NCBI GenBank assembly: GCA_021413965.1
Contig: JAIOPI010000021.1
Location: 220,671 to 284,670, forward strand
DNA: 64,000 bases
Source: Lentisphaerota bacterium
GTDB taxonomy: Bacteria; Verrucomicrobiota; Kiritimatiellia; UBA8416; JAIOPI01
Reading direction: 5' to 3'
Numbering within the stretch: the stretch's first letter is position 1; every line of letters starts with the position of its first letter. Under the pieces are notes generated by a model. That model had not been told where the DNA came from. It saw only the letters and a list, made by a program, of their open reading frames with translations, and searched no databases. This document shows, piece after piece, positions 1 to 54,187 of the stretch. The translations under genes were made by a program, and so were the position numbers.

Positions 1-1498
1 GCATGTTGGATTGGATCATGTCGACCGAGCAATTGATGACCGCCAGCGGCTGACACAATTCCTGCACGACTTCCGCCAGCAGTTCGAGCAGCTTGCGGCG
101 GGAAAATTTCAGGCCGATGCCCTGCCGTCGCGCCGCTTCATCCGCCTCCTCAGCCGCCTGCCGGTCGGCCTGGATATCCGCCGTCACACGCTTGATCTTC
201 TGCGCGGTGTGCTCCACCAGGACCCCGACCTGGGTCTGCACTTCGGTGAGCACGCGATCGAGCTGCCCCTGGCGGTTGCCGTCCGGCTGCTTCGTCAGCT
301 CGCCGGCGGCGCGCTCCATGCGGTCCAGCAGCGGCCCCAGGTGCGCCGCCGCCACGGCGGGATCGCCGGACTGTGCCAGCAGGGCCCCCCATCGATCAGG
401 CGCGACGCCTTCCTCCAGGAGTCGCTCTCCCAGCCCGGATTCCGCGGGCGCCTCACCGCCGTGGGCCTTCATGTAACGCAGCAGGCGCTTCTCCGTCTGT
501 TCCATGGCCTTCAGGCGCTTGGCATATTCCGCCGCGAGCGCATCGATCTGCAGGTCGTCTTCCAGGTCGGCCACCACGGCACGCACGGCGGCCACGTTCT
601 TGGCCGGATCGTAGCCGGTCACGCGGTCGAGCAGCCCGAGCAGAGACTCCTCCAACTCGCGCAACTGTTTCTGAATCTGCTTTCGCCCACGCTGGGTCTC
701 CAGGGCGTCGCCTTGCGTCAGCGCCTCGAACACCTTGCGCACACAGGCCACCAGTTCGCCCGCAAGGCTGCCATCGGGCGCCACCCGCAGGCGGGCGGCC
801 TCCACAATCAGCTCCGCCATGCGCGGGGCATCACCGGCCACGGCCCGCACGGCGTCCGCCGCCGGCGCCGGCGCCGGCGCGGCCGACGGCGCCTGCAGCA
901 GGGCCAGCGCCTCCGCCTCGCGGGCCGCGCGCGCCGCGCTCTCGACGGAGCTCGCGCCTTGCTGGGCCGCTTCCACGTCCTTGCGCTGCAGCACGACCTC
1001 GTCGTCGGCGACCTCGCGATACACGATCGTCTTGGAGGACACATGGCCCGCGCCGCGCCCGGCCAGCGCGGAGGCAAACCCGCCCGCCTGGAGCAGGACC
1101 TCGGGCTCCTGCGTCAGCAGATGGACGGCGGCGGCCAGCTCCTCCACCGTAATCCCCCGGCGCAGCACAAAGTTGCCCACATCCAGCGCCGTCATCTGCT
1201 CGATCAACGTGGTGATGTACCGCTCCTCTTCCTTCGGCGGCACGCCGTTGACGGTCAGGGCATCCCCGACAAGCCGGAAGACCAGCTCGTTGCCGCGCGT
1301 CAGGCAGCCCGACACCAACGCGTAGAAGGACACCAGCGTCTCGCGTTCATCGGTCGACGAAAACCAGTGGTGGTTCAGCGTGTTGTGCACGAGCAGCCCC
1401 AACCCTCGGGCGAGCTCGTGGGCCTCGGGCAGAAGCGACGGCGATGGCGCTGTTGACACGTCTGACATGACGGCGGGAATCGTACCCTGTGGGGCCAT
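1..1498 (-). CDS. Signal-transduction protein, sensor histidine-kinase-like (N-terminal ~500 aa; C-terminus beyond left edge)
   Basis: My reverse-complement translation of 1-120 and 1340-1498 gives a clean protein (MAPQGTIPAVMSDVSTAPSPSLLPEAHELARGLGLLVHNTLNHHWFSSTDERE ... GIGLKFSRRKLLELLAEVVQELCQPLAVINCSVDMIQSNM) in the frame antisense to track ORF 11..1456. The HisKA-like box sits at the window edge with Q where the phospho-His is expected. ATG candidates are 1498 and 1468. The gene is not in the ORF track because its stop is off-window. Confidence 0.5.
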   Translation of the reverse strand, partial: MAPQGTIPAVMSDVSTAPSPSLLPEAHELARGLGLLVHNTLNHHWFSSTDERETLVSFYALVSGCLTRGNELVFRLVGDALTVNGVPPKEEERYITTLIEQMTALDVGNFVLRRGITVEELAAAVHLLTQEPEVLLQAGGFASALAGRGAGHVSSKTIVYREVADDEVVLQRKDVEAAQQGASSVESAARAAREAEALALLQAPSAAPAPAPAADAVRAVAGDAPRMAELIVEAARLRVAPDGSLAGELVACVRKVFEALTQGDALETQRGRKQIQKQLRELEESLLGLLDRVTGYDPAKNVAAVRAVVADLEDDLQIDALAAEYAKRLKAMEQTEKRLLRYMKAHGGEAPAESGLGERLLEEGVAPDRWGALLAQSGDPAVAAAHLGPLLDRMERAAGELTKQPDGNRQGQLDRVLTEVQTQVGVLVEHTAQKIKRVTADIQADRQAAEEADEAARRQGIGLKFSRRKLLELLAEVVQELCQPLAVINCSVDMIQSNM

Positions 1499-1580
1499 GA
1501 AGATCAACGCCAGGGCGTCGGTTCCTTTTCCCTTGAGGTGCCGCAGAGGGGTCCCTATGGTGTCGCGCGGGAGGACGATC

Positions 1581-2366
1581 ATGGCGAAAATCTATTATGT
1601 TGGGGACTGGGCAATCATGCTTGGACCCATGTTTGCGGAAACCCCCTTCAACTACGCGTGGAAGGGCACGGACTTCATCAATTACGGAAAATTCCTGAAG
1701 GCCGCGCTGGAATCCACGGGCGAGCACCAGGTGGACAGCGTGGCGACCTGGGATTTCTACCGCAACCCGCCCGGCCGGCTGGAGCAGATCTTCAACGAGT
1801 ACGACGTTATTATCTTCTCGGACACCGAGGCCAAGAACTTCCAGCTCGACCCATCTTTCTTCGATCGCAACAAGTTCGGCAAGGAGCCGCTGACCTTCCC
1901 GGACCGCGTGCGGCTGACGGTGGAAGCCGTGAAGCGCGGCAAGCACATGATCTTCGTGGGCGGCTGGCTGAGCTTCAACGGCGAGTGCGGCAAGGGCGGC
2001 TGGGGCCGGACGCTGCTGCGCGAGATCCTGCCGGTGGAGTGCCTGACCGTGGAGGACCTGCGCGAGAACACGGAAGGTTTCCGCATGCGGACGCGCGGCC
2101 CGAAACACCCGATCTTCAAGGGCATCGACCTCGCCAGTGCCCCGCCGATCCTGGGCTACAACATCGTCAAGCCGCGCAAGGGCTGCCCGGTGCTGGCCAC
2201 GTGGCAGCCGGACGGCGATCCCGCCGTGGCGGTGGGTAAGTTCGGCAAGGGCCGCGTGCTGGCCTACACCTCCGACCCCGCCCCCCACTGGGGCTGCAAC
2301 TTCATCTCGTGGGATCAATACAATCGCTTCTGGTCCAACGCGCTGAACTGGCTGATCAAGGGGTAG
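1581..2366 (+). CDS. ThuA-like / class-I glutamine amidotransferase-like domain protein
   Basis: The real start is MAKIYYVGDW (M68 of ORF 1380..2366), preceded by GGAGGacgatc. Residues FVGGWLSFNGECGKGGWG and VLAYTSDPAPHW are typical of the ThuA/GATase1-like fold. GC3 is high. Confidence 0.7.
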   Translation: MAKIYYVGDWAIMLGPMFAETPFNYAWKGTDFINYGKFLKAALESTGEHQVDSVATWDFYRNPPGRLEQIFNEYDVIIFSDTEAKNFQLDPSFFDRNKFGKEPLTFPDRVRLTVEAVKRGKHMIFVGGWLSFNGECGKGGWGRTLLREILPVECLTVEDLRENTEGFRMRTRGPKHPIFKGIDLASAPPILGYNIVKPRKGCPVLATWQPDGDPAVAVGKFGKGRVLAYTSDPAPHWGCNFISWDQYNRFWSNALNWLIKG

Positions 2367-2524
2367 CCCTGGCCCACCCCGCCCGGTGGGTACTGAGGGA
2401 TCAGGCCTCGCCACCCTCAATTCCAACGCGTCCCGCGTTGTCCATGCGAGCAAATGGATCGGGCGAGCGCCGGCGGGTGGTTTCGCATTGCCAGCGCAAG
2501 GGTCCATTGGCACAGTGCCGCTCC

Positions 2525-3157
2525 ATGGACCCGCTCCCCATCTATGTGGATTTCGACGATGTGCTCTGCGAGACGGCGCGCGCGCTGACCGGGCTGCTCG
2601 AGCGCGAGTTCGGGCGGCGCGTCGCGTTCGAGGACATCCACCACTTCAACCTCGGGAAGTCGTTTGCGCTGGACGACGCCGAGCTGCAGCACCTGATGGA
2701 GCTGGCGCACGAGCCGGATTTTCTCGGCGTGCTCGAGCCCATCCCCGGGGCGATTGACGGCCTGCGCCGGTGGGCGGAGGCGGGGCACGCCGTGCACATC
2801 GTCACGGGGCGCCCGGCGTCCACGCACGCGATCTGCGACGCCTGGCTGCGCCGCTTCGAGGTGCCCCACGCCCGCGTGATCTTCGTGAACAAGTACGGCC
2901 GCGATCTGCTGCCCGGCGGCAGCGTGCGCGCCATTTCGCTGGATGAACTCGCCGGGCTGCGCTTTGCGCTGGCCGTCGAGGATGCGCCCAAGGCCATCCG
3001 CTTCCTGCTGGAGCGCACCCCGACGCCCGTGGCCGTCATGGATCGCCCGTGGAACCTGCGCGAGCCCTTCGACGACCGCCGTGGCCAGCTCCACCGCTGC
3101 CGGGATTGGGCCCACATCCTGGAGCAGTTCCCCTTGTCCCGGCCGGCCACGGCGTGA
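2525..3157 (+). CDS. HAD-superfamily 5'(3')-deoxyribonucleotidase-like hydrolase
   Basis: MDPLPIYVDFDDVLCETARAL carries the DxD HAD motif I; VHIVTGRP is motif II. The start was set by residue index (M73 of ORF 2309). Confidence 0.75.
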   Translation: MDPLPIYVDFDDVLCETARALTGLLEREFGRRVAFEDIHHFNLGKSFALDDAELQHLMELAHEPDFLGVLEPIPGAIDGLRRWAEAGHAVHIVTGRPASTHAICDAWLRRFEVPHARVIFVNKYGRDLLPGGSVRAISLDELAGLRFALAVEDAPKAIRFLLERTPTPVAVMDRPWNLREPFDDRRGQLHRCRDWAHILEQFPLSRPATA

Positions 3158-3180
3158 GCAGGTGGAGGGAGCGGGTGCCC

Positions 3181-3364
3181 GCGAATGTGGTGGGCGTTTG
3201 GTGCGCAACTGGGACGGCCATTTCACCTCATCCTCTGCGTTCTCGCCGGCGGTGCGTACCCGGAGTACAGCACCGCCGGCGACGCCTTGAGGCTGGGGCA
3301 AACTGGCCATCCCATTTGCGCATCGCGCCTGCGGCGCGAAGCCAAACGCCCACCACGTTTGCCC
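3181..3364. repeat. Nested-palindrome element A (~185 bp, MITE/REP-like) with terminal motif GAATGTGGTGGGCGTTTGG
   Basis: Left end gcgaatgtggtgggcgtttggtgcg (3181-3205) is inverted at ccaaacgcccaccacgtttgcc (3341-3364). Inner inverted repeats are ttgcgcaactgggacggccat and ggccatcccatttgcgca. Confidence 0.7.
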
Positions 3365-3642
3365 TCGCTTTGCACCCCGCCGGCGGAGCGGGGTGCTGGC
3401 GAGTTCGGACTGGGGACGCCGCTTAAATGGACACATCGTCACCACCGATGATGCCTTCCGCCTACGCGCAGACGCTACGGCGGATCTGTGAGGCTGGCTT
3501 GCCCGCCGTAGCCGATGGCGAAGGCGGGGGCAAACGGGCCGTTCGCGAGTCCAGATTTGGGCAATGAGCTTGTCGTCAGCCCATCAGTTTCTCCGCTCCG
3601 AACTCGCCGTCGCCCCGTCTGCCACGGGGCGACTGGCGAGGG

Positions 3643-3827
3643 CAAACGTGGTGGGCGTTTGGGTGCCCGCCCGCCGCGGGCGGGATGCGCATCGGGTGCG
3701 GCAAGCTTGCCGGAGCGCAAGGCGCGGGAGGCGGCGCCATACTCTTGGGTATGCGCCGCCTCTCGCAACGCCGCGATCTGGCAAGATCGCCGCACCCGAT
3801 GCGCACCAAACGCCCACCACATTCGCG
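3643..3827. repeat. Nested-palindrome element B (~185 bp), tandem to A with swapped ends
   Basis: Left caaacgtggtgggcgtttgg is inverted at ccaaacgcccaccacattcgcg. The inner 25-bp inverted repeat is gcgcatcgggtgcggcaagcttgcc / ggcaagatcgccgcacccgatgcgc. Confidence 0.7.
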
Positions 3828-3908
3828 TCAACCCGCCACCATCGCCTCGCGCGCGAGCCGCGCGGTTCCGGCTTGCACCGCGTCGGCGCGGGCGTGGTAG
3901 TGTGGGGC

Positions 3909-4844
3909 ATGTCACGTCGCTATGCCATCGTGGGGTGCGGGGCCGTTGGCGGCTACTACGGCGCCTGCCTCCAACGCGCCGGCGCCGAGGTGCACTACCT
4001 GCTGCACCGCGATTATGACCATGTGCGCGCGCACGGCCTGCGTATCGACTCCAAATTCGGCAACTTCGTCCTGCCGCGCGTTCATGCCGCGCAGCGGCCG
4101 GACCAGGTCCCACCTTGCGACGTGGTGCTGGTGGGGTTGAAGACCACCGCCAACCACGTGCTGCCGGAGATCCTGCCGCGGCTGCTGGCGCCGGGCGGGG
4201 TGGTACTCCTGCTGCAGAATGGGCTGGGGGAAGAGGACGCGCTGGCACGCATCCCCGGGGTCGGGACCATCGTCAGCGGACTGTGTTTCCTGTGCGCAAA
4301 CAAGGTGGGGCCCGGTCACGTCCTGCACCTCGACTATGGCGCCATCATGCTCGGCGAATATCGGGCCGATGGACGCCCGGCCGGCGTCACGCCCGCCATG
4401 CAGGCGATCGCCGCCGATTTCAAGCCCACGGGCATCCCCATCGAATTGCTGGAGGACTTGCTGGGCGCACGCTGGAAGAAACTCGTGTGGAACATTCCCT
4501 TCAATGGCTTGTCGGTGCTGCTGAACACGGACACGCGGCGCCTCATGGACGATCCGGGCCTGCGTCCGGTTATCCGCGGCCTGATGGAGGAGGTCGTGGC
4601 CGCCTCCGCCGCCACGGGGCACGCGGTCCCGGCGGGATTCATCGACAAGATGGTGGCGCAGACGGAAGCGATGGCGGCCTACTTGCCCAGCATGAAACTC
4701 GACTACGACGCCGGGCGCCTGCTCGAACTGAGCAGCATGTACGAGGCGCCCCTGCGACAGGCCAGCGCCGCTGGCGCCACCATGCCCCTGACCGAAGCGC
4801 TGTGGCGGGAGTTGGGGTTCATGGAAAACTCCAAGGGGCGGTGA
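3909..4844 (+). CDS. panE: 2-dehydropantoate 2-reductase (ketopantoate reductase)
   Basis: MSRRYAIVGCGAVGGYYGACL is a Rossmann GxGxxG; the LVGLKTTAN region and the C-terminal ApbA domain follow. The start is M116 of ORF 3564; the upstream part of that ORF is a translation of the repeats. Confidence 0.9.
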   Translation: MSRRYAIVGCGAVGGYYGACLQRAGAEVHYLLHRDYDHVRAHGLRIDSKFGNFVLPRVHAAQRPDQVPPCDVVLVGLKTTANHVLPEILPRLLAPGGVVLLLQNGLGEEDALARIPGVGTIVSGLCFLCANKVGPGHVLHLDYGAIMLGEYRADGRPAGVTPAMQAIAADFKPTGIPIELLEDLLGARWKKLVWNIPFNGLSVLLNTDTRRLMDDPGLRPVIRGLMEEVVAASAATGHAVPAGFIDKMVAQTEAMAAYLPSMKLDYDAGRLLELSSMYEAPLRQASAAGATMPLTEALWRELGFMENSKGR

Positions 4845-6271: not shown

Positions 6272-7897
6272 CTATGGCGCTTCGACGGCAACGCGGAAAT
6301 AGGAGGCGGTCGCGGCGGTCTGGGCGGTGTAGATGTTCACCGGTGGCGTGGCGGCGAGGTTGGTGGCCAGGGCCGCAAAGGCATCGAACAGGTTGGTGCC
6401 ATGCCGCACGGCGTATTGCCGTCCATCGACGCTGGCCCAGTGCACCACCGGCGCGCCCTCGGGTGAAACATCCGTGGCCGTCAACGCCAGGCGGCTGACG
6501 GGATTCGTGGCGTCGGTCCCCGCCACCGCTTCATCCGCATCGCGGACGGTGTCGCCGTCGCTGTCGACCAGCGCATGCACATACTCGTAGGCGCCAATAT
6601 CCCATGCGTTGGTGCCGTCGGCATTGCCGTCGAGCGGGCGCGCGACGCCGAGGAGATCGCGGGGCGCCTCGGGGCGGTCAAGGCCGCGATCAACGGCGGC
6701 ACTGCCCGGCAGCAGGTGCAGATCGCTGAAGGGATCCATCACGAGCGACGCCGGCGCGGCGACAAAGGAGTGCAGGTCGTAGCCGTGCGTGCGCCAACTG
6801 GTGAGATTGATCACGTTGCCGCCGTCGTTGATCGAGAACCGGCCGATGACGGTGTTGTAGTCGGAGACAAAGCCTTCCAGATTCGCGACGGGAATCGTGA
6901 TGCTGCCGCGGAAGGAGTGGAAGCAGTAGGTCAGGTTGTTGAACACCCGGTTGCTCACGCAGCCCGTGCTGGCGAGATTGATCGCCCAGCCGCCATTGTT
7001 GGCGCCCATGATGATCGTGTTGTTCACGATCCAGTTCAGGCGCGAGGCGATCGCGGCATTGCCCTTGAACAGCGCGATACCGCTGTTGTTGGTCGAGTTG
7101 TAGATGAGGTTGTTGCGGACGATCGTGCGCTCGACGCCGTCCATGTTGATGCCCGCACCGCCCTGGCCATTGGAGAAGATGACGTTGTTCTCCACGATTC
7201 CGTCGGAGATCGCGCCGTCCCAAACCCAGGGGGAGCCGGTCGGCGGGGCCACGCTGATGTCCGCGTTCATGTGCAGCCCGGCGTTGCGGTTGTGGTGGAG
7301 GGTGTTGCCCCGGATCACGAAGCGGTCGCTGCTGTTGTTGTAGTAGATGCCGTGTTCTCGGTTGTCGCTGCAGGTGTTGCCTTCGATCAGTGCGTCGTAG
7401 GAGAACGCGGTAAAAATTCCGGTCGAGGCGCTGTTGGACACGGTGTTACCGCGGACGACGAGGAACTGGGTCGAGCGGGCGTCGATGCCGTAGCGCCCGG
7501 AGTTCACGACGCGCAGCCCTTCAATGGTCCAGTGGCGCACCACATACGGGGCGCTGTAGGTTTCCAGTTCCAGGACGCTCTGATGCACGGCCGCCGCGCT
7601 CGAGGCGTTGAGCGTGGCTGTTCCTGGCGTTGCAGGGCGCAGGGTGATCGGAGCCTCGGAGGAGCCGGAGCGCTCGATGCGGGCGCCGGCATACGCACCG
7701 GGGAGCAGGAGGATCGTGTCACCGGGCGCCACGCTGTTGACCGCCTTCTGCACCGTGCGGAAGGCGGCGACTTCTGACAGCCCGTTGCTGGCGTCGCTGC
7801 CGGTGGTGGCCACGTAGTACGTGCCGGCTTCCGCTCCCGCCGTGCACAACGCGAACGAGGCCATGACCGCGCGGCACGCCATGCGGGCGCCGCTCAT
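6272..7897 (-). CDS. Secreted right-handed parallel beta-helix repeat protein (pectate-lyase fold)
   Basis: Signal peptide MSGARMACRAVMASFALCTAGAEA; repeated NxxIxxN/GxxI beta-helix rungs (IRGNTLHHNRNAGLHM, VENNVIFSNGQGGAGIN). The start ATGA overlaps the stop of the upstream HAD gene. Confidence 0.8.
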   Translation of the reverse strand: MSGARMACRAVMASFALCTAGAEAGTYYVATTGSDASNGLSEVAAFRTVQKAVNSVAPGDTILLLPGAYAGARIERSGSSEAPITLRPATPGTATLNASSAAAVHQSVLELETYSAPYVVRHWTIEGLRVVNSGRYGIDARSTQFLVVRGNTVSNSASTGIFTAFSYDALIEGNTCSDNREHGIYYNNSSDRFVIRGNTLHHNRNAGLHMNADISVAPPTGSPWVWDGAISDGIVENNVIFSNGQGGAGINMDGVERTIVRNNLIYNSTNNSGIALFKGNAAIASRLNWIVNNTIIMGANNGGWAINLASTGCVSNRVFNNLTYCFHSFRGSITIPVANLEGFVSDYNTVIGRFSINDGGNVINLTSWRTHGYDLHSFVAAPASLVMDPFSDLHLLPGSAAVDRGLDRPEAPRDLLGVARPLDGNADGTNAWDIGAYEYVHALVDSDGDTVRDADEAVAGTDATNPVSRLALTATDVSPEGAPVVHWASVDGRQYAVRHGTNLFDAFAALATNLAATPPVNIYTAQTAATASYFRVAVEAP

Positions 7898-8808
7898 GCG
7901 TTGCCCAGGTCCAGGGTGAGTTGCCCCTGCACGACGACCTTGCGGCCGGTGGGCACATCGGGATCGGCCGTGTAGTACACCACGAACTTGACCGACGGGA
8001 ACTGCCGGGCCAGCTCGGCGCGGATGTATTCCTCCACCGCGCGCGCGTTGCCGACATCATCGTCGGAGAAGCCGACGCTGATGGGGCGTGTCAGGCCGCG
8101 CTGGTGGGAAATGCGAATCACGTGCTCCACGAAATCCTGTATGGCGAACTGCTTGCCTTCCTCCGTGCGCACGGCGGCCGCCCCGCGCTTGCCGACCATC
8201 AGCTGCTTGAACTGCGGCGACATGACGCCGTGGTATTTGTTGTGATCGAGGTAGTAGGCAATGACTTCGGCATCCGTGCCGGGATGGGCTTCCGGGGCGA
8301 AGCTGAGCATGTAGCCGCGCAGGTTGCTCAGCATCTGGTTCTTCTCGTCGTCGGTGAGGACGCGCTCGATGAAATACTCGACGGCGGCCCGAATGATGTC
8401 GGGATTGTGACCGCGCGCGGTGACGATGGCGAAGAGCCGGCCTTCGATCAGCGTCAGCTTGAAGCGCTGGAAACTGGGGGCCAGGCTGGTCTCGCCGTGC
8501 ATGACGCGGTCGATGGCTGTCTTGGTGTCGCGCAGGAAGACGTTCTGGTCCTCGTCGTCGAAATCGCGGAATTCAAGGAACGCGTTTTCCCAGTCGCCAC
8601 CGGGCGGGCGGTAATTCCGGGTGTCGTTGCGAATGACGCTGAACACGGCCGTGGACACGGCGTGGGGCACCCAGCGGCCATCCTCCGTCCGCTTTTCGAG
8701 GTGGATGTGCGTGGGCATGTGCAGGATGTTGTCATCCCAGTCGAAGATGTAATACTTCAGGTCGCGCTCGGCGACCGAGTAGTTGACGTGATGCGACAAT
8801 GTGACCAT
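7894..8808 (-). CDS. HAD-family 5'-nucleotidase-like hydrolase
   Basis: MVTLSHHVNYSVAERDLKYYIFDWDDNILHMPTH; DWDDN is the HAD DxD nucleophile motif. The start was set by residue index (M46). A 4-bp ATGA overlap couples it to the beta-helix gene. Confidence 0.75.
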   Translation of the reverse strand: MVTLSHHVNYSVAERDLKYYIFDWDDNILHMPTHIHLEKRTEDGRWVPHAVSTAVFSVIRNDTRNYRPPGGDWENAFLEFRDFDDEDQNVFLRDTKTAIDRVMHGETSLAPSFQRFKLTLIEGRLFAIVTARGHNPDIIRAAVEYFIERVLTDDEKNQMLSNLRGYMLSFAPEAHPGTDAEVIAYYLDHNKYHGVMSPQFKQLMVGKRGAAAVRTEEGKQFAIQDFVEHVIRISHQRGLTRPISVGFSDDDVGNARAVEEYIRAELARQFPSVKFVVYYTADPDVPTGRKVVVQGQLTLDLGNA

Positions 8809-8909
8809 GGAAACCCCGTGTGCAGACGCGGTAGTATAGGCGATCGGGGGATGGAGTGCAATGGGGGGGGCAAACAGGACTATCCCCAGTTTTCCACTTG
8901 CTGGTGAAA

Positions 8910-9077
8910 GCGTTGTGCGTTTGGTGCGAATGTGGCGCGCCATTTTGCCGCATCCGCGTCGTTGCTTGGAACGGCGCGGATGCAGGTCCAGCGCCGTTCC
9001 AGACGCCTAGCGGCTGCAGCAAACTGACACGCCACATTCGCATCCCCGCTGCGCGGGGCGGGCCAAACGCACAACGC
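8910..9077. repeat. Nested-palindrome element C (permuted relative of A/B)
   Basis: gcgttgtgcgtttggtgcgaatgtggcg is inverted at cgccacattcgc ... ccaaacgcacaacgc, with a 21-bp hairpin insertion (atccccgctgcgcggggcggg) and inner inverted repeats gcatccgcg / cgcggatgc. It lies just upstream of the HAD gene. Confidence 0.65.
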
Positions 9078-9406
9078 GTTGCCATCGCCCTCGCGGACTC
9101 GGGCGATTTCAGATGCGGAAAGGCACAACATCTTCTCAAACATGAACTTGGCAAGAATTCATCATGAAAACCGGGGATAGTTCTGGGGGGCGAAGGCGAA
9201 AATCCTCGCCCATGAAACCGCGAATCCGCTCAAACGTGCGTCATATTTAGCGTGGGCGCGGCTCGGCGGGACGCCTCGCCCCACCTCGGAGGCCACAGAG
9301 CGTCTCGATATCAGCAGGTGGGGCGAACGCGGTGGTCTCGTTCGGCCACAGGCGATGGGTTGATAGGGGAACAGCCCTTACGGGCTTAACTACAAGCGTT
9401 GGACAT

Positions 9407-10129
9407 ATGAATTTTGAATCTCCGCTCGTGTTCGGGACGCTGGTGCGGCGGTACAAGCGGTTTCTGGCGGACGTGGAACTGGCGGACGGCCGGATCCTGA
9501 CGGCCGTATGCCCAAACACGGGCAGCATGCGTTCGTGTGCCACGCCCGGCTGGCGTGTGGGGCTGTCGCATTCCGCGTCGCCCACGCGGAAGTATGCGTA
9601 CACGTGGGAGCTGGTGCACAACGGCGCGTGCTGGATCGGCATCAACACGGGGCGGACGAACGGCCTGGTGTGCGAGGCGATCGAGCAAGGGCTCCTGCCG
9701 GAGCTCGCCGGTTACGCGACGCGGCAACGCGAACAGGCCTACGGCCGGTCAAGCCGCATCGACATCCTGATGTCGGACGGCGCGCGGCGGTGCTACGTGG
9801 AAGTGAAGAACGTGAGCCTGCGCACCGACGATGGCGCGGCGGCGTTTCCGGATGCGGTGACGGCACGAGGGCTGAAGCACCTGGAGGAGCTGGCGCGCAT
9901 GGTGCGGGAGGGGCATCGGGCCGTGATGTGCTACGTCGTGCAGCGTGCGGACTGCACGGGCTTTCGGCTGGCGGCGGAGATCGATGCCGCCTACGCGAAG
10001 GGCTTTGCCAAGGCGCGGCGCGCGGGGGTGGAGGCGGTGGTTTATGCGGCGGACGTGAGTCCCGAAGGGATCGTGCTGGGGCGCCGGATGGAGATGCAGG
10101 GCGGGGCTTCGGAGTCCACCCCCTCCTGA
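9407..10129 (+). CDS. sfsA: Sugar fermentation stimulation protein SfsA
   Basis: MNFESPLVFGTLVRRYKRFLADVELADGRILTAVCPNTGSM is the SfsA N-terminal OB fold; the start is M26 of the ORF. Confidence 0.85.
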   Translation: MNFESPLVFGTLVRRYKRFLADVELADGRILTAVCPNTGSMRSCATPGWRVGLSHSASPTRKYAYTWELVHNGACWIGINTGRTNGLVCEAIEQGLLPELAGYATRQREQAYGRSSRIDILMSDGARRCYVEVKNVSLRTDDGAAAFPDAVTARGLKHLEELARMVREGHRAVMCYVVQRADCTGFRLAAEIDAAYAKGFAKARRAGVEAVVYAADVSPEGIVLGRRMEMQGGASESTPS

Positions 10130-29811: not shown

Positions 29812-31914
29812 TCAGGCCGGCTTGCCATCGCGCTCGCGCATCGCGGCCTTGCGGCTGAGCTTGACGCGGCCGCGATCATCGACGCCGAGGCACTTCACCC
29901 ACATGGTGTCGCCGACCTTGCACACATCTTCGACGCGGTTGACGCGGAAGTCCGCCAGCTCGCTGATATGCACGAGGCCATCCTTGCCGGGCAGGATTTC
30001 GACGAAGGCGCCGAATTCCTTCACGCCGGTCACGACGCCGCTGTAGATCTCGCCTTCGCGCGCTTCGGCGGTGACGAGTTCGACTTCGCGCACGGCCAGG
30101 CGCAGGGCTTCGGCGTCCGTCGCGAAGATGCGCACGGTGCCGTCCTCCTCGATGTCGATCTGCGCGCCGGTCAGGTCCGTGATGCGGCGAATGGTTTTGC
30201 CGCCCGGCCCGATCAGCATGCCGATCTGCTCGGGGTCAATCTGCACGACATGGATGCGCGGGGCATGCGGCGACATTTCCGACCGCGGGCTCGCGATGAC
30301 CGACTGCATGTAATCGAGGATCTGCATGCGGGCGCGGTGCGCCATCGCAAAGGCTCCCTCGACGAGATTCCACGGCAGGCCGCGGATCTTGAGATCGACC
30401 TGGAAGCCCGTGACGCCGTCGCGGGTGCCGGAGACCTTGAAGTCCATGTCGCCGCAATGGTCTTCGGCGCCGATGATATCCGTCACCAGTTCGGCACGGT
30501 TCGGGCCGGTGAACAGGCCGACGGAGATCCCGGCGACCGGCTTGATGATCGGGATACCCGCGTCCATCATCGCCAGGGTGCCGGCGCAAACGCTGGCCAT
30601 CGAGGTCGACCCGTTCGAACCCATGATGTCCGAGACAAGGCGCACGGTGTAGGGGTAGTCCGACGGCAGGACTTCGCGCAGCGAGCGCTCGGCGAGGTTG
30701 CCGTGGCCGATTTCGCGGCGGCCCGTGGAGCCCAGCCGCCCCACTTCGCCGACGCTGTACGGCGGGAAGTTGTAGTGCAGCATGAACTTCTTTTCGGTCT
30801 CGCCGCCGGTGATGGCGTCGAGGCTCTGGGTATCCGACTTGGTGCCGAGGGTGACCGAGCACAAGGCCTGGGTCTCGCCGCGGCTGAAGATGGCGGATCC
30901 ATGGGTCCGGGGCAGGACGTTCACCTGGGCCGTCAGCGTGCGCAGTTCGTCGGACTTGCGGCCATCGATGCGGCGCCCGCGCTCCAGCACGTTCCGGCGC
31001 ACGAGATCGATTTCCAGCTCGTCGAACATGGCCCGGAAGGTCTCGTCCTTCAGTTCGGGATTGGCCGCCTGCAGCTTGGCCTTGAGTTGATCCTTCAGGG
31101 CGGTCACGCGGTTCTGGCGTTCCAGCTTGCCGGGGATCGTCAGGATTTCGGCAAATTCCGTGCCGACCAGCGCGCGCGCCTGGTTCAGCAAGGCATGGTC
31201 CGGGGTGACTTCCGCGACGACCTTGTCCGGCAGGCCGAGCTTGCGGCGAAGTTCCAGCTGGGCGTCGATCAGCTTGACGACGGCAGCGTGCCCGATGCGC
31301 ATGGCGGCGACCAAATCAGCCTCGCTGGCTTCCTTGGCGCTGCCTTCGATCATGATGGGCAGGTCGCGCGTGCCGCTGTACATGAGGTCCAGGTCGCTCA
31401 GTTCGCGCTGCTCGTGCCCGGGATTGAGGACGAACGTGCCATTGATGCGGCCGACGCGCACGCTGGCGACGGGCCCCATGAAGGGGATCTCGGAGAGGGT
31501 CAGCGCGGCGCTGGCGGCCAGGATGCTGACGGCATCGGCGTCATTCTCGCCATCGGCCGACAACAGCATGCTGTTGATCTGCACGTCGTTGCGATAGGTC
31601 TCGGGGAAGAGCGGCCGGATGGGGCGGTCCGTGAGGCGGGCGGTCAGGATTTCCTTTTCGCTGGGGCGCGCTTCGCGCTTGAAGAATCCACCGGGGAACC
31701 GGCCGGCGGCGTAATACTTTTCGCGGTATTCGACCTGGAGGGGGAAGTAGTCGATGCCTTCGCGGGGCTTGTCGGTGCAGGTTACGGCGGAGAAGAGGAT
31801 GGTGTCCCCGATGCGGACGGTCACGGCGCCGGAGGCCTGTTGGGCCAGCAGGCCGGCTTCGAGGGTGATATCCTTGCCATCGATATTGACTGTGACGGAT
31901 GTGGTGTTCTGCAT
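29812..31914 (-). CDS. pnp: Polyribonucleotide nucleotidyltransferase (PNPase)
   Basis: [21 protein letters not shown]; two RNase PH domains, KH ([11 protein letters not shown]) and S1 ([20 protein letters not shown]). Confidence 0.95.
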
Positions 31915-31960
31915 GGTGTGTCTCGCTGCTACGGGAGGGAGGCGCCGGTGCGGGAGTAAA

Positions 31961-32005
31961 CTGCCTGGACGCGCTCCGCGTCGCCGCGAAGTGGGGTCCA
32001 GGCAG
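31961..32005 (-). promoter_or_regulatory. rpsO terminator / pnp leader stem-loop (candidate RNase III / autoregulatory hairpin)
   Basis: On the minus-strand RNA, ctgcctggac ... gtccaggcag forms a 10-bp stem with an inner GC hairpin. It occupies the position of the E. coli rpsO-pnp processing hairpin. Confidence 0.4.
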
Positions 32006-32024
32006 GGAAAGCAAACAAGCCGCG

Positions 32025-32288
32025 TTACCGCCGAATGTTCAGCTCTTTGATGAGCCGCTGGTAACGCTTCTCGTCCTTCTGCTTCAGATAGTCAAGCAGG
32101 CGCCTGCGGGCGCTAACCATTTTGATGAGACCAAAGCGGGAGCTATGGTCCTTCTTGTGCTGCTTGAGATGTTCGGTGAGCAGCTCAATTCGCTTCGAGA
32201 GCAACGCCACTTGGACATCGGAGGAGCCCGTGTCCCCTTCGTGCCGTTGAAACTGCTCTCGGATCTGCTTCTTGTCTATCTGACTCAT
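32025..32288 (-). CDS. rpsO: 30S ribosomal protein S15
   Basis: [69 protein letters not shown]; the start was set by residue index. Confidence 0.95.
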
Positions 32289-32346
32289 GCTGCCGACGAG
32301 CCCTTCCTGATTGTGTTCTATCGCTCCTTGATGTTGCTGGGGCGGA

Positions 32347-33327
32347 CTATAGTACGGTGCTGGCCATTGTGCAAAGGGATTCTTTGACCCTTTTTTTGCG
32401 GGCCAAGACGCGTCGTCCGTGGGCCACATCGCGCGCGATCTGGGCGCACAGGGCATCGAGGGAATCGAAGGTCTGTTCGTCGCGCAGCTTGGCGATAAAG
32501 AAGATTTCCACTTCACGTCCGTAGAGATTGCCCGCGAAGTCAAGGACGTACCATTCGAGGACGGCGGGCGGATGCGGGCCATGATGAACGGTGGGCCGGA
32601 CGCCGTAGCTGAGCAGGCCGGCGCGCAGGTGGTTGCCGACCAGGCCGAAGACGGCGTAGATGCCGAAGGGCGGGAGCACCTCGTTGGTGGGCGCGACGTT
32701 GGCGGTGGGGTACCCGAGGCGGCGTCCGAGGCGCGACCCGTGCACGACGCGTCCGAGCACGCTGAAGGGCCGGCCCAGCAGCGCGGCGGCGTGGTTCAGC
32801 TCGCCCGCGTGGATGGCGGCCCGCACGCGCGTGCTCGACACCACGGCGCCCCCGCGGGTCGCGGGCCGCACGATGTGAACGCGGAAGCCGTGCTGCCGCG
32901 CGAAGCGCGCCAACAGGGCCGGCGTGCCGGCGCGGCCCTGGCCAAAGCGCCAGTTGGGGCCGACAAACACATCCGTCAGCGTTGGCGCGGATGCCACCAG
33001 GTGATCCAGAAAATCCTGCGGGCTGCGCGCCGCCAGTGTCGGGGTGAAGGGGAGGACCATGCACCCGTCGATCCCCACGCGCGCCAGGGCGCGCAGCTTG
33101 TGGGGCAGGGACGTCAGCAGGCGCGGGGCGGCGGGGGGGTGCAGGACGCGGGCGGGGTGCGGGTCAAACGTCAGGGCCCAGGCGGTGCCGCCCTGCTCCC
33201 GGGCGCGGCGCAGGGCCGCTTCGAGCACCTTTGCGTGACCGCGATGAACGCCGTCGAAGAACCCGACCGCCACGCACAGCGGTTGTCGCAGGGTGCGCCA
33301 GCGCGCCAGATCGTTCGCCACGGTCAT
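32347..33327 (-). CDS. ribF: Bifunctional riboflavin kinase / FAD synthetase
   Basis: [15 protein letters not shown] (FAD-synthetase HxGH), then the riboflavin-kinase domain [20 protein letters not shown]. The start is M46 of the ORF. Confidence 0.9.
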
Positions 33328-33430
33328 GCGTCGGGCGTTTGTGGCAGCGGCGCGGTGTCCGTCTGGCGCTGTTCCGGCGGGAGTCTTCCGCAGAGTCGCA
33401 GGGTTCACGGAGCATTCCTTGCCGAGTGGA

Positions 33431-34204
33431 TCAGTCGCGCTTGTACTCGCCTGCGCCGGCAAAACGCGCCAGGGGCAACAGGCGCCGGGTCAGGTCGTCG
33501 CGGCTCAGTCTTGCCAGTTCATCATCCGTGATGGAATCTTCGATGCCCAGATTTCCCGACCGCGTGCGCCGCAGTCGCGACAGATGCGCACCGCAACCGA
33601 GCTGGTCCCCGATGTCCGAGGCGATCTTGCGCACGTAGGTGCCCTTCGTGCAACGCAGCACGAAATCTGCCTCCGGCAGCTCAAAGCGCGTGAGGGTGAA
33701 CTCGTAGATGTGAATCAGGCGGGGCTGGCGCTCGACCTCCTGCCCCTTGCGCGCGCGCTTGTACAGCGGTACGCCTTCGAACTTGATCGCGGACACCATG
33801 GGAGGGACCTGCAGGATGTCGCCCAGGAAGGTGGTCATCGAGGCCTCGAGCTGGGCGCGCGTGATGCCATGGCAATCCTTCTCGGAGATCACGGCGCCGG
33901 CCGCATCGTGCGAATCCGTGGCGACGCCCAGGCGCAGCGTGCCCTCGTACGTCTTGTCCGACCCGAGGAACTGGCTGGACAGCTTGGTGGCGCGTCCGAG
34001 CAGCAGCACCAGCACGCCGGTGGCCAGGGGGTCGAGCGTGCCGCCGTGGCCGACCTTTCGGATGCCGAAGAGCCGGCGCACCCGGTCGACCATGTCGTGC
34101 GACGTCGGTCCGGCCGGCTTGTCCACCACAAGGACGCCGTCCAGGGGATCGGCGGCGCGCGGCGGGGCGGGTCGTTGAAAGCGAACATTGGCGTCGGGCG
34201 TCAT
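33431..34204 (-). CDS. truB: tRNA pseudouridine(55) synthase
   Basis: DGVLVVDKPAGPTSHDMVDRVRRLFGIRKVGHGGTLDPLATGVLVLLLG holds the catalytic Asp motif. Confidence 0.9.
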   Translation of the reverse strand: MTPDANVRFQRPAPPRAADPLDGVLVVDKPAGPTSHDMVDRVRRLFGIRKVGHGGTLDPLATGVLVLLLGRATKLSSQFLGSDKTYEGTLRLGVATDSHDAAGAVISEKDCHGITRAQLEASMTTFLGDILQVPPMVSAIKFEGVPLYKRARKGQEVERQPRLIHIYEFTLTRFELPEADFVLRCTKGTYVRKIASDIGDQLGCGAHLSRLRRTRSGNLGIEDSITDDELARLSRDDLTRRLLPLARFAGAGEYKRD

Positions 34205-34587
34205 GGGATGTCTTCCTCCGGGGTGGGCTCCGGCGGCGCGCCGTCCATCTGGGTGAGCAGTTCCAGCACGTGGTCGCCCCGTTCGATGGAGGTGTCGAGT
34301 TCGAACGTGAGCCGCGGCGTGTACTTCAGCTTGAGGTTGGTGTTGATGCGCTCCTGCATCTCCGCCCGGTGGTGGCGCAGCAGGTCCATCATCCGTTCGC
34401 GCTCGTCCTGGTGATCCCGGATCGAGACCAGCACGCGCGCCGTGCGCAGGTTGCTGCTCGCGACCACATGCGTGATGGTGACGGCCGAGAGGTCGAACGC
34501 GCGCTCGTTCATCAGGCGGAACAGGGCGTCGCCCAGCTCGCGCCGGATCAACTCGTTGACTCGGACCATGCGTCGCGATGTCGTCAT
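34201..34587 (-). CDS. rbfA: Ribosome-binding factor A
   Basis: RVNELIRRELGDALF ... LTFELD; a 4-bp overlap with truB. Confidence 0.9.
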   Translation of the reverse strand: MTTSRRMVRVNELIRRELGDALFRLMNERAFDLSAVTITHVVASSNLRTARVLVSIRDHQDERERMMDLLRHHRAEMQERINTNLKLKYTPRLTFELDTSIERGDHVLELLTQMDGAPPEPTPEEDIP

Positions 34588-34710
34588 AAGGAAAGTGTCA
34601 AACGGCCGGTGTTACGTGTCAAGCGGCAGGACGGCCGCCAAGTCTGTCCGTCAACAAGCGAAATGCAAATCCCTGGGCGATTCGACCTGGCGGTCCCTGC
34701 GGCGTGCGGG

Positions 34711-36924
34711 TCAGAGGGTCTGGCGGACCTCTTCGACCGTGTAGAACTCCAGGAGGTCCCCCTTGTCGAAGGCGGTAAAGCGATCCAGACGGATGCCGCA
34801 CTCCTGCGACTCGCGCACTTCGGCGACGCTTTCCTGGAAATGTTTGAGCGAGGCGATGGACCCCTGGTAGAGAACTTCGTCCCCGCGACGCACGCGAACC
34901 TTGTTGCGCGCGGCGATGGTGCCCTTGATGACGCGGCAGCCGGCCACCCGGCTGGTCTTGCCGATCGGGAACACCTCGAGAATCTGTGCCGTGCCCACCA
35001 CGGTCTCCTTGAGCTCCGGCGCCAGCAGGCCGGTCATGGCGTCGCGCACTTCATCCAGCAATTCGTAGATGATGTTGTGCATGCGGATATCGACGCCTTC
35101 GCGGCGGGCGAGCGAATCGACGCCGACTTCCTTGCCGACGCAGAACCCCAGGATCACGCCCTGGGAGGCGCTGGCCAGCATGACGTCGTTCTCGGTGATG
35201 TTGCCGGTCGAGCCCAGCATGATCGTCAGGGAGATCTTCTCGCTGCGGATATCCTTGAGCGCGTGATGGATGGCCTCGATGCTGCCCTGCGTGTCGGCTT
35301 TGAGCACGACGCGCAGATCCAGCTTCTTCTCGCCTTCGAGCTGGCTGAAGAGGTTCTCCAGCGACACCTTCTTGGGGGAGGCGAGATGTTTCTGCTTGAG
35401 CTGTTCGGACAAGTCGCTGGCCATCTGGCGCGCGAGGCGCTCGTTGGCGTAGACGCGGAATTCCGCGCCGGCTTCAGGCACGCCTGGCAGCCCCAGGCAC
35501 TTGACGGGCGTCGACGGTTCCGCCGATTTCACCTTGGTGCCGTGGTCGTTGATCAGGGCGCGTACACGGCCGCAATGGGGGCCGCAGAGAATCACATCGC
35601 CGATCTTGAGCGTGCCGGTGGTCACGAGCAGGTTGGCCGTGGGGCCCATGCCGTGCTCCAGCTTGGCTTCAATCACATAGCCCGTGGCCCGCCGATGCGG
35701 GTTGGCGCGCAATTCGAGCAGGTCCGACTGCAGCAAGATCATTTCCAGCAGGTGGTCGATGCCCGCGCCGGTCTGGGCGCTGACGGGGCAGCAGATGGTC
35801 TGGCCGCCCCAGTCTTCCGGGCTCAGGTTTTCGGCCTGCAGCTGACGCCGCACGCGTTCCACATTGGCCGTGGGCAGATCGATCTTGTTGATGGCCACCA
35901 TGATCGTGACGTCCGCGGCGAGTGCGTGCTGAATGGCTTCGCGCGTCTGCGGCATGATGCCGTCATCCGCGGCGATCACGATCACCGCGATGTCGGTGAG
36001 ATTGGCGCCGCGGGCGCGCATGGCCGTGAAGGCCGCGTGGCCGGGCGTGTCCAGGAACGTGATCTGGCGCCCCTGCAGGTTCACGGTGTAGGCGCCGATG
36101 TGCTGTGTGATGCCGCCGAATTCGTCTTCCACGACGGAGGCCTTGCGGATGCGATCCAGCAGGGACGTCTTGCCATGGTCAACGTGGCCAAGGAAGGTGA
36201 CGACGGGCGGGCGCGGCTGCAAATCCTCAGGCCGCTCCTCGTCTTCCCGGGTCTCGGTGGCCTTCTTGGGAACGACGACCTTATGCTCGGTGGAGCGCTT
36301 GTCGTGTTCCAGCGTGTAGCCGTGTTTCTCGGCCACCGCGCGGGCGACGGCCACGTCCACCTTCTGGGTGATGGAGGCCAGGATGTTCATGCCCATCAAT
36401 TCGGCGATGACGGCGTTGGGCCGCATCCCGAGGGCTTCAGCCAGATCGCGAACGACGACCGGTCCCTTGACGTGAATGGCGCGTTCGCCGGGGATGACTT
36501 CCGGCTTGGCCGGCGGCGGCGGTGGCGGAGGAGGCTTGGGCATCGCCACGGGGGCGGGTGGGACGACGGGTGTCGCTGGTTTGACCACCACAGGCTCAAC
36601 CTTGGCAACCGGCTTGGCTGCAGGCTCGGGAGACGTCGGGGGTGCGGCCGGTGGCGCCACCTTGGGCGTGGGTGCCGGCGGGGCGGGCGGCTTGACCGCA
36701 ACGGCCGGGGCGGCCGGCGCGGTGGCTGCGGCCGGGGCGGGTGTCGCCGCCGGAGCCGCTGGCGCAGGAGCCGCGGCCTGGCCGTGGCCGGCCATCAGCT
36801 TCTGGACGATCGCTTCGTCCACCGTGCTGGCGTGAGATTTGACTTCCACACCCAGCTCGTGCAGACGGGCGATGCAGTCCTTGCTGCTGATATCCAGCGC
36901 TTTGGCCAGTTCGTGTACTCTCAT
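34711..36924 (-). CDS. infB: Translation initiation factor IF-2
   Basis: A Pro/Ala-rich N-terminal linker; GTPase G1 [13 protein letters not shown]3 DTPGH, G4 NKID; C-terminal beta-barrels. Confidence 0.95.
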
Positions 36925-38192: not shown

Positions 38193-38242
38193 GGCCGCGC
38201 ATTCCTGAGGGCCTGTCGGGGGCCAAACCCCCTCTAATGCAC

Positions 38243-38268
38243 AACAGAGTGGGACGGCCCACTCTGTT
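38243..38268 (-). promoter_or_regulatory. Perfect 10-bp hairpin in the nusA leader
   Basis: aacagagtggg acggc ccactctgtt lies about 55 nt upstream of the nusA start; no rimP gene is present between the promoter region and nusA. Confidence 0.35.
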
Positions 38269-38402
38269 CGCGCAAGCACCCTTATTGTCCCGAACACTCC
38301 AAATAAACCATAATGCCAGCCTGAGGGTCAAGCTCGCATTCCCCACAAATTGGGCTGGCGGCTTGTCGACGCCCTCTCTGGAATGATAAGACAGCCGTCT
38401 GT

Positions 38403-48535: not shown

Positions 48536-48692
48536 TGGACACGGCTCGCCGGGACGGCTCGCCCCACCACGGTTCCGTGGGGACGCGCAAACCGGGCGCT
48601 CAGGCCGGGACGCTTTGCCGTTGTGCCATCCGGCACAGGTGCTAGAATTGCGCGAGGGAACGGGGTTACACATTCGAGGAGGAATCCACGCC

Positions 48693-50606: not shown

Positions 50607-50726
50607 GGGCCGCCGCGGGTGAAGCACCAACGTGCGAGGGCACGCCAGAACACATCGAACGGCCTGGGGCATCGGGGCATGCCTGCGAGTCTCCGCGATG
50701 CTCCGGCATATGGTACCGTCTTCGCC

Positions 50727-51968: not shown

Positions 51969-52043
51969 TCGACGTGTCGCGGCGGCAGGCTTTCGCCCCT
52001 GCTGCCGAATGAGAGGGCATGAACGTCTGCCCCGCGAGGATGT

Positions 52044-52535
52044 ATGAAATCGAAAGCCAAGCTCTCCCACATCGATGCCGCCAACCAGCCGCGAATGGTG
52101 GATGTCGGCGCCAAGGCCTACACGCGGCGTGAGGCCACGGCGCGGTCGGTGGTGGTGGCGCCGCCCGCAGTCATGCGCCTGCTGGCCGATGGGGAACTGC
52201 GCGGCCCCAAGGGGCCCGTCTTTCAAACGGCGATCATCGCCGGGACGCAGGCCGTCAAGCGCACCAGCGACCTGATTCCGTTCTGCCATCCGCTGCCCAT
52301 CGAGCATTGCCGCATCACGATTGCGGTGAACGCGGAGCAGGAAATCGAAATTGAGTGCACGGTGGGCGTCGAGCACAAGACGGGCGTGGAAATGGAAGCC
52401 CTGGTGGGCGCGTCGGTGGCCGCGCTCACGGTTTACGACATGTGCAAGGCGGTCTCGCACGATATCCGCATCCGCGAGACGCGCCTGCTTCGCAAGCGCG
52501 GTGGCATGCGCGATGTAACAGCGGCGTCAAGCTGA
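52044..52535 (+). CDS. moaC: Cyclic pyranopterin monophosphate synthase
   Basis: [25 protein letters not shown] ... [24 protein letters not shown]. Confidence 0.9.
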
Positions 52536-52554
52536 CGAGCGGGAAGCACGTGGT

Positions 52555-53772: not shown

Positions 53773-53838
53773 TCGTGTTCAGGGGCGGGCGCGGTGCCAT
53801 CCGCGGCATTTGCCGGCGTGAGGATACGTGAGGAGCAC

Positions 53839-54081: not shown

Positions 54082-54187
54082 GGGCCCGTGGTCGGGCGGG
54101 GCGCCAATTATGAGCGCGTGATCAACCGGTTTCCGAGTCTTGCAAGGAATGCATATTGCGTTGGAATCGAACGCCAAACCTGAACCC

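Follow-up and report, generated by a model that had tools for sequence, protein, structure and literature searches.

We analysed a 64,000-nucleotide stretch of contig JAIOPI010000021.1 from a Lentisphaerota bacterium (positions 220,671 to 284,670; hereafter the window), in which two intergenic regions contain three copies, designated A, B, and C, of a long hairpin-forming repeat. Elements A (3181-3409, + strand) and B (3597-3826, - strand) lie between a gene coding for an NT5C/HAD-like protein (2309-3157) and panE (3909-4844), the flanks given in an earlier reading of the letters alone (the sequence-only reading), with B antisense to panE. An exact look-up of the PanE protein of the window gave no entry. 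Element C (8907-9113, +), placed by that reading upstream of the HAD gene, is instead located in the divergent promoter region between a gene for a 304-aa protein with no Pfam match (7894-8808, -) and sfsA (9332-10129, +). All three units were delimited by covariance-model matches and by folding, and A additionally by its inverted repeats. A, B, and C are members of an undescribed, lineage-restricted family of intergenic elements of about 230-250 bp that are strongly structured and strand-polarised.

Anatomy of the window copies

The 15-mer GTGGTGGGCGTTTGG occurs four times in the window, at 3187 (+), 3342 (-), 3648 (+), and 3806 (-), forming two inverted pairs where 0.19 occurrences are expected, and none of 100 shuffles reached this count; the inverted repeats described earlier are present and the repeat elements real. 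A covariance model (R1) built from the family alignment, with 28 members, matches A at 3182-3365 (178.8 bits, E 2e-41), B at 3639-3825 on the minus strand (162.2 bits, E 2e-37), and C at 8905-9085 (152 bits, E 6e-35), and finds no fourth copy within the 64 kb. When A (3170-3375, +) and C (8897-9092, +) are aligned with reverse-complemented B (3630-3838), all three are collinear over their full length, at a mean column identity of 81%. C was previously regarded as a permuted relative, but its alignment to A and to reverse-complemented B runs from one end to the other, and A and B, described as tandem, are inverted, tail-to-tail copies of one unit. The 273 bp separating the A and B hairpins consist of both tail hairpins plus a spacer of about 185 bp (187 bp), and the entire 3160-3847 segment (A, B, tails, and spacer) is a large imperfect palindrome centred near 3503.

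On the sense strand, the unit reads 5' to 3' as a leader (CGAAWG), the 5' arm of an outer stem P1 (xxGCGTTTGG), an inner hairpin P2 starting from TGCGMA, a side hairpin P3, the P1 3' arm (CCAAACGCxx), GTTTGCC, a tail hairpin, and TTCGGA. P1, P2, and P3 together constitute a near-perfect hairpin of about 182 nt, and P3, which is small and present on one side of the hairpin only, is the feature lending the unit its direction. In A, the long hairpin (3181..3362, +; recovered also as inverted repeat I5) has P1 arms GCGAATGTGGTGGGCGTTTGG / CCAAACGCCCACCACGTTTGC, a P2 apex of GTGCGTACCCGGAGTACAGCAC, and a folding P3 (3323..3339, TCGCGCCTGCGGCGCGA) positioned between the 3' arms of P2 and P1. The A tail (3363..3409, +) takes in the end of GTTTGCC, a hairpin (CTCGC..GCACCCCGCCGGCGGAGCGGGGTGC..GGCGAG), and TTCGGA; it folds, and tails are kept between copies. 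The B long hairpin (3641..3826, -) includes its P3 at 3666-3684, and the B tail (3597..3640) reads on the minus strand as a CTCGCC..GTCGCCCCGTGGCAGACGGGGCGAC..GGCGAG hairpin followed by TTCGGA. A and B have identical P1 and tail ends and differ in P2. The C long hairpin (8907..9083, +) has P1 arms GCGTTGTGCGTTTGG / CCAAACGCACAACGC and a P3 at 9044-9058, and its tail (9084..9113, +), an ATCGCCC..GGGCGAT hairpin followed by TTTCAGA, is of the type found in 10 copies of a Kiritimatiellales metagenome-assembled genome (MAG).

Each window copy forms one long hairpin of about 75 pairs. The inner inverted repeat of 20-25 bp noted earlier is in fact a near full-length hairpin carrying an asymmetric side hairpin. 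Single-strand folding energies under DNA parameters are -97.4 kcal/mol for A (z = -11.4 against 200 shuffles) and -79.1 kcal/mol for C (z = -7.2, likewise against 200). The spacer between the A and B tails (3410..3596) contains a hairpin of its own at about 3455-3530, with arms GCCTTCCGCC..GCTACGGCGG / CCGCCGTAGC..GGCGAAGGC, and inverted repeats I1, I2, and I4; it matches no family found here, and blastn identified no relatives of it among the sequences sampled.

Distribution, structural conservation, and turnover of the family

One genome per species was scanned with a P1-core pattern, GCGTTTGGTGCG N120-150 CCAAACGC, which forces the P1 core to be invariant. Of the 97 stretches matched, about 27 fold like the window copies, nearly all of them in MAGs of the Planctomycetes-Verrucomicrobia-Chlamydiae (PVC) superphylum, and the remainder resemble chance matches. 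Those accepted as true copies belong to a Kiritimatiellales MAG (CAMFEP01, with loci among L002-L091), a Victivallales MAG (CAZWQJ01, with loci among L007-L087), a MAG labelled 'Verrucomicrobiota' (L054), and an unclassified bin (L075), such that the hosts are Kiritimatiellales and Victivallales MAGs plus bins labelled Verrucomicrobiota or unclassified. Applying R1 to the sampled loci added five copies missed by the pattern, including a tandem pair and a second tail-to-tail pair (L007:93-277 / 485-667), and the Kiritimatiellales MAG rose from 18 pattern matches to 20 copies after covariance-model search. Metagenomes were scanned separately using the conserved apex GGCGCATACC-N-GGAGTAT-N-GCGCC, which recovered 34 loci with a divergent subfamily. 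Its P1 core is CCATTTCG/CGAAATGG or GCATTTCG/CGAAATGC, differences that are compensatory relative to GCGTTTGG/CCAAACGC, and it retains, outside the scan pattern, GTTTNCC and an inner motif CGCGGCGTTG.../...CGCCTTGCG that we interpret as a GGCG/CGCC helix with two TTG bulges about it. The suspected genome-wide family is supported in kind, with at least 50 copies across the sampled PVC genomes and metagenomes, all of them intergenic. No family match was found in phage, plasmid, or viral-contig collections. Searching the whole window against Rfam 15 gave no match at gathering thresholds, and relaxing E to 10 for the window and six other loci gave only chance-level matches to microRNA precursors. 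We found no description of a PVC repeat of this kind in the literature.

The 28-sequence alignment (A2) supports a consensus structure of 62 pairs, of which 40 show compensatory double changes; these include all six pairs of P3 (helix 5 of the family structure). By explicit count, 94.4% of paired cells are standard pairs as compared with 80.3% in shuffles, and there are 213 double-change cells against 59. No observed pairing measure was reached in any of 500 shuffles, and controls with slid partners are only 31-45% paired. A one-base bulge beside the apex loop is also kept across the A2 copies obtained independently of the pattern. The search for compensatory change suggested in the sequence-only reading is therefore positive, but it does not distinguish RNA hairpins from those of single-stranded DNA.

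Copies have been gained or lost. Sixteen copies at different loci and with different flanks in one metagenomic organism (Ga0156641, Ga0156516, Ga0208374) are 87-99% identical and constitute a recent burst, as compared with a median copy identity of 71% in the Kiritimatiellales MAG and 65-73% in the window; within genomes, identities range from 58 to 92%. P1 and the tail are homogeneous inside a genome and P2 varies, suggesting modular exchange. A Kiritimatiellales locus (L083) is syntenic with window positions 1380-3157, its GATase1-like protein being 88% and its NT5C protein 57% identical. The intergenic site between these two genes holds a copy in L083 and is empty in the window and in a third locus (L132, also 88% identical), and the site following NT5C holds two copies in the window, one in L083, and none in L132, whose spacers are short and whose 10 kb lack copies altogether. 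Within their overlaps, three near-identical metagenome assemblies revealed no insertion polymorphism.

Incomplete forms are also found. A solo form (L002:3668-3740) retains leader and tail and has lost the hairpin by an exact deletion between the GCGTTTG direct repeats at its base, one copy is 5'-truncated (L091:2880-3014), and a third locus has a 5' fragment of about 40 nt (L029:858-900). A search for an autonomous relative of the burst subfamily gave none: downstream homology stops within about 50-190 nt and is followed by other small repeat modules. At five loci of the same metagenomic organism (L102, L113, L098, L103, and L104), mosaics of other modules surround the big hairpin. Among these modules are a small hairpin GCTGGAGCCGGCCCGACCCCGGGCCGG, a leader rich in G and T that ends with TGATGA, and a trailer rich in purines, GGAATATGGAAAAGAG..GCGGAGCGCATGGAGGGCGAG. 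The modules recur in varying combinations, resembling bacterial interspersed mosaic elements (BIMEs).

Orientation relative to strand composition

GC skew was determined for up to 4 kb on each side of each copy, excluding the 300 nt beside the element, and read in the sense orientation of the element. Of 45 copies on 36 contigs, 43 have flanks of positive skew, so that their sense strand is the G-rich strand, and the mean is +0.18; values range from 0.18 to 0.34 in the Kiritimatiellales MAG and from 0.05 to 0.16 in the organism with the burst. Both exceptions (B and L007:485-667) are the second, wrong-way members of tail-to-tail pairs. All 14 burst copies with sufficient flank are polarised, and the presence of the polarity in the youngest copies favours a bias at insertion. 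The skew across the whole 4-8 kb loci of the Kiritimatiellales and Victivallales MAGs is unusual in its size (absolute values of 0.18-0.33) and occurs with no gene-strand bias.

The polarity does not follow the genes. The sign of the skew is constant across genes of both orientations, AT skew is opposite, and the genes called in three organisms number 32 on the G-rich and 36 on the C-rich strand, 4 and 7, and 36 and 29 respectively, a roughly even split. By a heuristic gene caller based on GC3, elements are co-directional with the upstream gene in 15 instances and divergent from it in 11, with a corresponding ratio of 8 to 14 for the downstream gene. When the upstream gene is co-directional, the hairpin begins 16-53 nt past its stop codon. 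At L083, the elements run antisense to the Pfam-verified GATase1-like and NT5C genes, which occupy the C-rich strand. In the window, these two genes occupy a strand that is neutral to weakly G-rich, and A runs sense to them. This contrast between syntenic loci indicates that the element tracks DNA strand asymmetry and not transcription. The aligned copies share no conserved sequence in their upstream flanks, and no promoter-like site, terminator-like site, or U-tract was seen at the copies.

Mode of spread and relationship to known repeats

A Pfam survey of the approximately 50 open reading frames (ORFs) of the window found housekeeping functions only, and no transposase, reverse transcriptase, HUH gene, or other gene of a mobile element is present in the 64 kb. 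Using IS608 and IS200 TnpA sequences as approximate tblastn queries, we found no Y1 TnpA of IS200/IS605 type in all the sampled sequence, and the only matches were to proteins resembling REP-associated tyrosine transposases (RAYTs; REP, repetitive extragenic palindrome). These are encoded in two carrier MAGs, at L029:162-629 (-) and L088:3242-3838 (+), and are Y1/HUH proteins of 155 and 198 aa with an HUH motif (MPDHVHLF) and a Y motif (YVRLNPVR, YxxxNP). They match the NCBIfam REP-associated tyrosine transposase model NF047646 at E 5e-20 and 8e-16, below its curated cut-off, and the TnpA-REP structure PDB 4ER8 at E 1.6e-5; the Pfam Y1_Tnp match is weak. Public data contain more than 1000 homologues, for many of which JGI uses the name RayT. 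Arrays of small REPs flank the gene in either MAG, with GGCCCGCGGGCCGCGGGCCCTCCAGC occurring five times in L029 and TGGAGGGCGAGGCTGCGCCGAGCC in L088, and the fragment of the big element at L029:858-900 abuts the former. Relative to skew, these REPs likewise point one way at the few loci available (8/8 in the Kiritimatiellales MAG and 5/5 in the Victivallales MAG, the latter all at one locus). At least two carrier MAGs thus possess the enzymology for mobilising single-strand hairpins, but its link to the big hairpin is weak.

Of the known systems, REPs, BIMEs, and REPIN-RAYT systems (a REPIN being two inverted REPs) share many features with the family. They too are intergenic, multi-copy, and lineage-restricted, have hairpins kept by compensatory change, and form subfamilies, mosaic module clusters, and head-to-head or tail-to-tail pairs, and the RAYT-like proteins flanked by small REPs in two hosts are a further likeness. 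However, the unit described here is 5-10 times larger and no GTAG or CGTC tag was seen; REPs are palindromes of 20-40 nt, and here the hairpin is about 182 nt with arms that are not themselves palindromic. The one-way orientation of the big hairpin relative to skew may be a further difference. The palindromic repeats typified by the 127-bp enterobacterial ERIC/IRU (enterobacterial repetitive intergenic consensus/intergenic repeat unit) elements, and Correia, RUP, and SMAG repeats, resemble the family in that the whole element is an imperfect palindrome, intergenic, and structurally conserved across genera, with possible effects on mRNA and unexplained propagation. The present unit shares no sequence similarity with them, is from another phylum, is longer, has an asymmetric side hairpin and a tail, shows strand polarity, and lacks a TA or other duplication.

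Membership of the classical, DDE-transposase-derived miniature inverted-repeat transposable elements (MITEs) was also considered. The P1 arms are inverted over 15-20 bp, but the conserved unit extends about 45 nt further 3' (the tail hairpin and TTCGGA) and about 10-30 nt further 5', and the 28 + 16 aligned copies show no target-site duplication, the sole recurrent direct repeat being the internal GCGTTTG at the hairpin base. A parent insertion sequence with the same ends and a transposase was not found in about 0.9 Mb sampled, no protein recurs beside copies, and the conserved apex argues against an internal-deletion junction. The designation 'MITE/REP-like' therefore holds in the loose sense of a multi-copy intergenic repeat with a burst and with syntenic gain and loss, but fails the strict definition of either class. 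Integron attC sites are similar in having variable sequence with a conserved folded single strand and extrahelical bases, one strand folding better, and replication orientation mattering (PMC5371416). They were rejected as a classification, as GTTTGGT/GCCAAAC of the element does not fit the R''/R' consensus (RYYYAAC/GTTRRRY) and the window has no cassettes and no integrase; the copies are also scattered one by one, and attC sites, at 57-141 bp, are shorter than the unit. A retron msr-msd was set aside given the lack of a reverse transcriptase in the window, the lack of a recurring partner gene, and the dozens of dispersed copies. The 6S-like, bridge-RNA, and omega-RNA possibilities were likewise set aside, as the motifs or partner genes that define them are missing.

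The IS200/IS605 group and its non-autonomous derivatives, the palindrome-associated transposable elements (PATEs), which transpose as single strands ('peel and paste'), provide a precedent for the polarity. IS200/IS605 elements excise from and insert into the lagging-strand template, and their insertion orientation matches that template (PMC5027513); the same lagging-strand orientation is given in PMC3333891, which cites Ton-Hoang 2010. Orientation bias relative to the replication strand is a hallmark of IS200/IS605 that is common to our family (PMC5027513), with the PATE-like bias seen in the 43 of 45 copies aligned with flanking skew and in neighbouring genes divided about equally, with replication direction taken from skew only. 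Further likenesses are directionality, the absence of classical terminal inverted repeats once the tail is counted, no evident target duplication, and, in some subfamilies, hairpins near the ends. The 3' tail hairpin is universal, a small 5' hairpin module is present in only some copies of one subfamily, and no fixed flanking motif was seen. The differences are that one central hairpin of about 180 nt dominates in place of two short subterminal imperfect palindromes, that no TnpA or TnpB is nearby and no conserved tetra- or pentanucleotide target was identified, and that the better-folding strand is apparently opposite to the one expected.

By this IS200/IS605 precedent, the strand polarity suggests an element that moves as single-stranded DNA rather than an RNA gene, and our tentative explanation, at a probability of roughly 0.45, is a non-autonomous structured repeat spreading by a replication-coupled single-strand DNA route through a trans-acting enzyme. 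The unit would be mobilised at the replication fork as folded single-stranded DNA, with the enzyme encoded elsewhere in the genome; we infer both the route and the type of enzyme, for which the HUH/Y1 class, such as the RAYT-like proteins of two host MAGs, is a candidate. Recognition may involve the conserved base of P1, the motif with two TTG bulges, the apex with its bulge, and the P3 and tail hairpins, which are asymmetric. Each new insertion would be intergenic and would take a single direction with respect to fork movement. If only copies that still fold keep propagating, this would account for the compensatory changes and the within-genome subfamilies. Tail-to-tail pairs such as A/B may be local secondary rearrangements, solo and truncated copies may be decay products, for example of slippage across the hairpin base, and any effect on neighbouring mRNAs through hairpins at their 3' ends would be a by-product.

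Several observations weigh against this transposition model. No target-site duplication or fixed target motif is resolved in the 28 + 16 aligned copies, with the unit ends blurred by mosaic modules, and a single long hairpin is unlike both IS200/IS605 ends and REPINs. The window itself contributes only three copies with weak skew, and that GC skew reports the direction of replication in these fragmented MAGs is something we infer. Because copies are related by descent, the folding and polarity statistics are indicative and their p-values inflated. The small REPs beside the RAYT-like genes form a family distinct from the big hairpin, full copies of the big hairpin lie 3-6 kb from the two RAYT-like genes, and no big-hairpin copies are found near six other RAYT homologues (55-65% identity; 9 loci, about 130 kb). 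An all-against-all BLAST of the ORFs at 23 element-bearing loci identified no recurrent partner protein beside copies, with only translations of the repeats recurring. Lastly, for 47 of 50 copies the complement of the sense strand gives the more stable fold (-77.9 versus -72.7 kcal/mol with DNA parameters). With RNA parameters, the complement is similarly favoured (-127 versus -120 kcal/mol) and has more G.U pairs (175 versus 118), which places the sporadic transition mismatches as A.C on the strand with G-rich flanks, the reverse of what C-to-T pressure would be expected to give there; two or three conserved U.G positions are nonetheless on the sense strand. The better-folding strand is on the C-rich side, which by the usual convention is not the lagging-strand template, an arrangement that suits models of survival or selection at least as well.

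One such model, which we consider unlikely although the best of the rivals, is a selfish or neutral repeat whose polarity derives from orientation-dependent survival, or from a host role at the DNA level, rather than from biased insertion. Copies with the stabler hairpin strand on the single-stranded lagging-strand template would be lost through slippage deletion or hairpin nucleases, leaving only the orientation in which the stronger-folding strand is on the other template; sedentary integron attC arrays are comparably oriented and have been argued to keep the stronger hairpin off the lagging-strand template (PMC5371416). The stability of the C-rich-side complement is as this model predicts, and the exact hairpin deletion between the GCGTTTG repeats of L002 shows that such losses happen. 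However, the stability gap is small (about 5 of 75 kcal/mol) for a bias of 43/45, the youngest subfamily is already fully polarised, and wrong-way copies persist when paired (B and L007:485-667). Somewhat less probable is a cis-acting RNA element of the host, a 3'-end or intercistronic hairpin acting as a terminator or exonuclease block and kept by host-level selection on RNA structure, for which the REP and ERIC elements of enterobacteria serve as a model. The intergenic location of all copies, the placement of hairpins shortly after the stop codons of co-directional genes, the position of the L007 tail-to-tail pair between the 3' ends of convergent genes, and the strong covariation are as would be expected, but the orientation is unrelated to the neighbours (using the heuristic gene calls) and locked to strand composition, the promoter region that holds C is divergent and B runs antisense to panE, neither a U-tract nor a terminator-like site is present, and the occupied sites vary between syntenic genomes.

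Two further explanations are less probable still. The first of these is doubtful, and posits that the hairpins are more than selfish DNA and represent a novel type of chromosomal element specific to one replication strand. Each would be either a substrate for an undescribed form of single-strand DNA transposition that recognises one hairpin of about 180 nt, or a host signal acting on one template at the fork in priming, pausing, or processing; the double TTG bulge and bulged apex would then be a protein-binding module. The other, improbable by a wide measure, is the suggestion that the elements are structured small RNAs, as independent multi-copy genes or as retron-like or guide-RNA-like non-coding RNAs. 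In favour are the size, conservation, and directionality of the structure, whose loops, bulges, and apex are also conserved; on the complement, where G.U pairs are more numerous, the order of small hairpin, P1, small hairpin, long hairpin, and P1' loosely recalls a retron msr-msd. The unconserved upstream sequence with no promoter- or terminator-like site and the orientation unrelated to genes speak against independent genes, as do the failure of Rfam to match beyond generic microRNA-hairpin noise at E up to 10, the lack of a reverse transcriptase, TnpB, IscB, or other partner recurring at copies or in the window, within-genome identities of just 58-92%, and the existence of truncated and solo forms.

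To our knowledge, interspersed palindromic repeats, well studied in proteobacteria, are essentially undescribed in the PVC superphylum, and an orientation tied to strand asymmetry has so far been characteristic of single-strand DNA transposons. The present family is unusually large and strongly structured, with an orientation almost perfectly tied to the compositional asymmetry of the strands. If the polarity holds in a closed genome, the copies would be ready-made markers of replication direction in Kiritimatiellia and a tractable substrate for finding the mobilising enzyme, as well as a warning to annotators that such hairpins break MAG assemblies and create spurious ORFs. The GC skew of 0.2-0.33 in host MAGs lacking gene-strand bias itself deserves explanation.

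Small repeats distinct from the big hairpin are present both at the RAYT-like loci and in the window. One REP copy lies within the L088 RAYT-like gene (as an LEGEAAPSR insert), and in L029 about seven tandem 14-nt units resembling GAACATCGAACACA (942-1046) are situated between the REP array and a gene for a 1715-aa surface protein. In the window, a REP-like 25-mer, GGCTCGSCGGGACGSCTCGCCCCAC, which resembles the L088 REPs, occurs at 9260-9284 (+), 48543-48567 (+), 52956-52980 (+), and 53001-53025 (-), four times against 0.01 expected; the first of these shares its intergenic region with C and lies about 150 nt downstream of that element. The window also contains a housekeeping cluster, nusA-infB-rbfA-truB-ribF-pnp (29812-38297, -), and a molybdenum-cofactor cluster with moaA, moeA, moaC, mobB-mobA, and moaE-thiF (49542-55807, +). 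The inverted, REPIN-like pair at 52956-53025 falls in the MobB-MobA linker of ORF 52555-53772, which reflects either an in-frame REP insertion or two genes wrongly joined into one ORF over an intergenic repeat.

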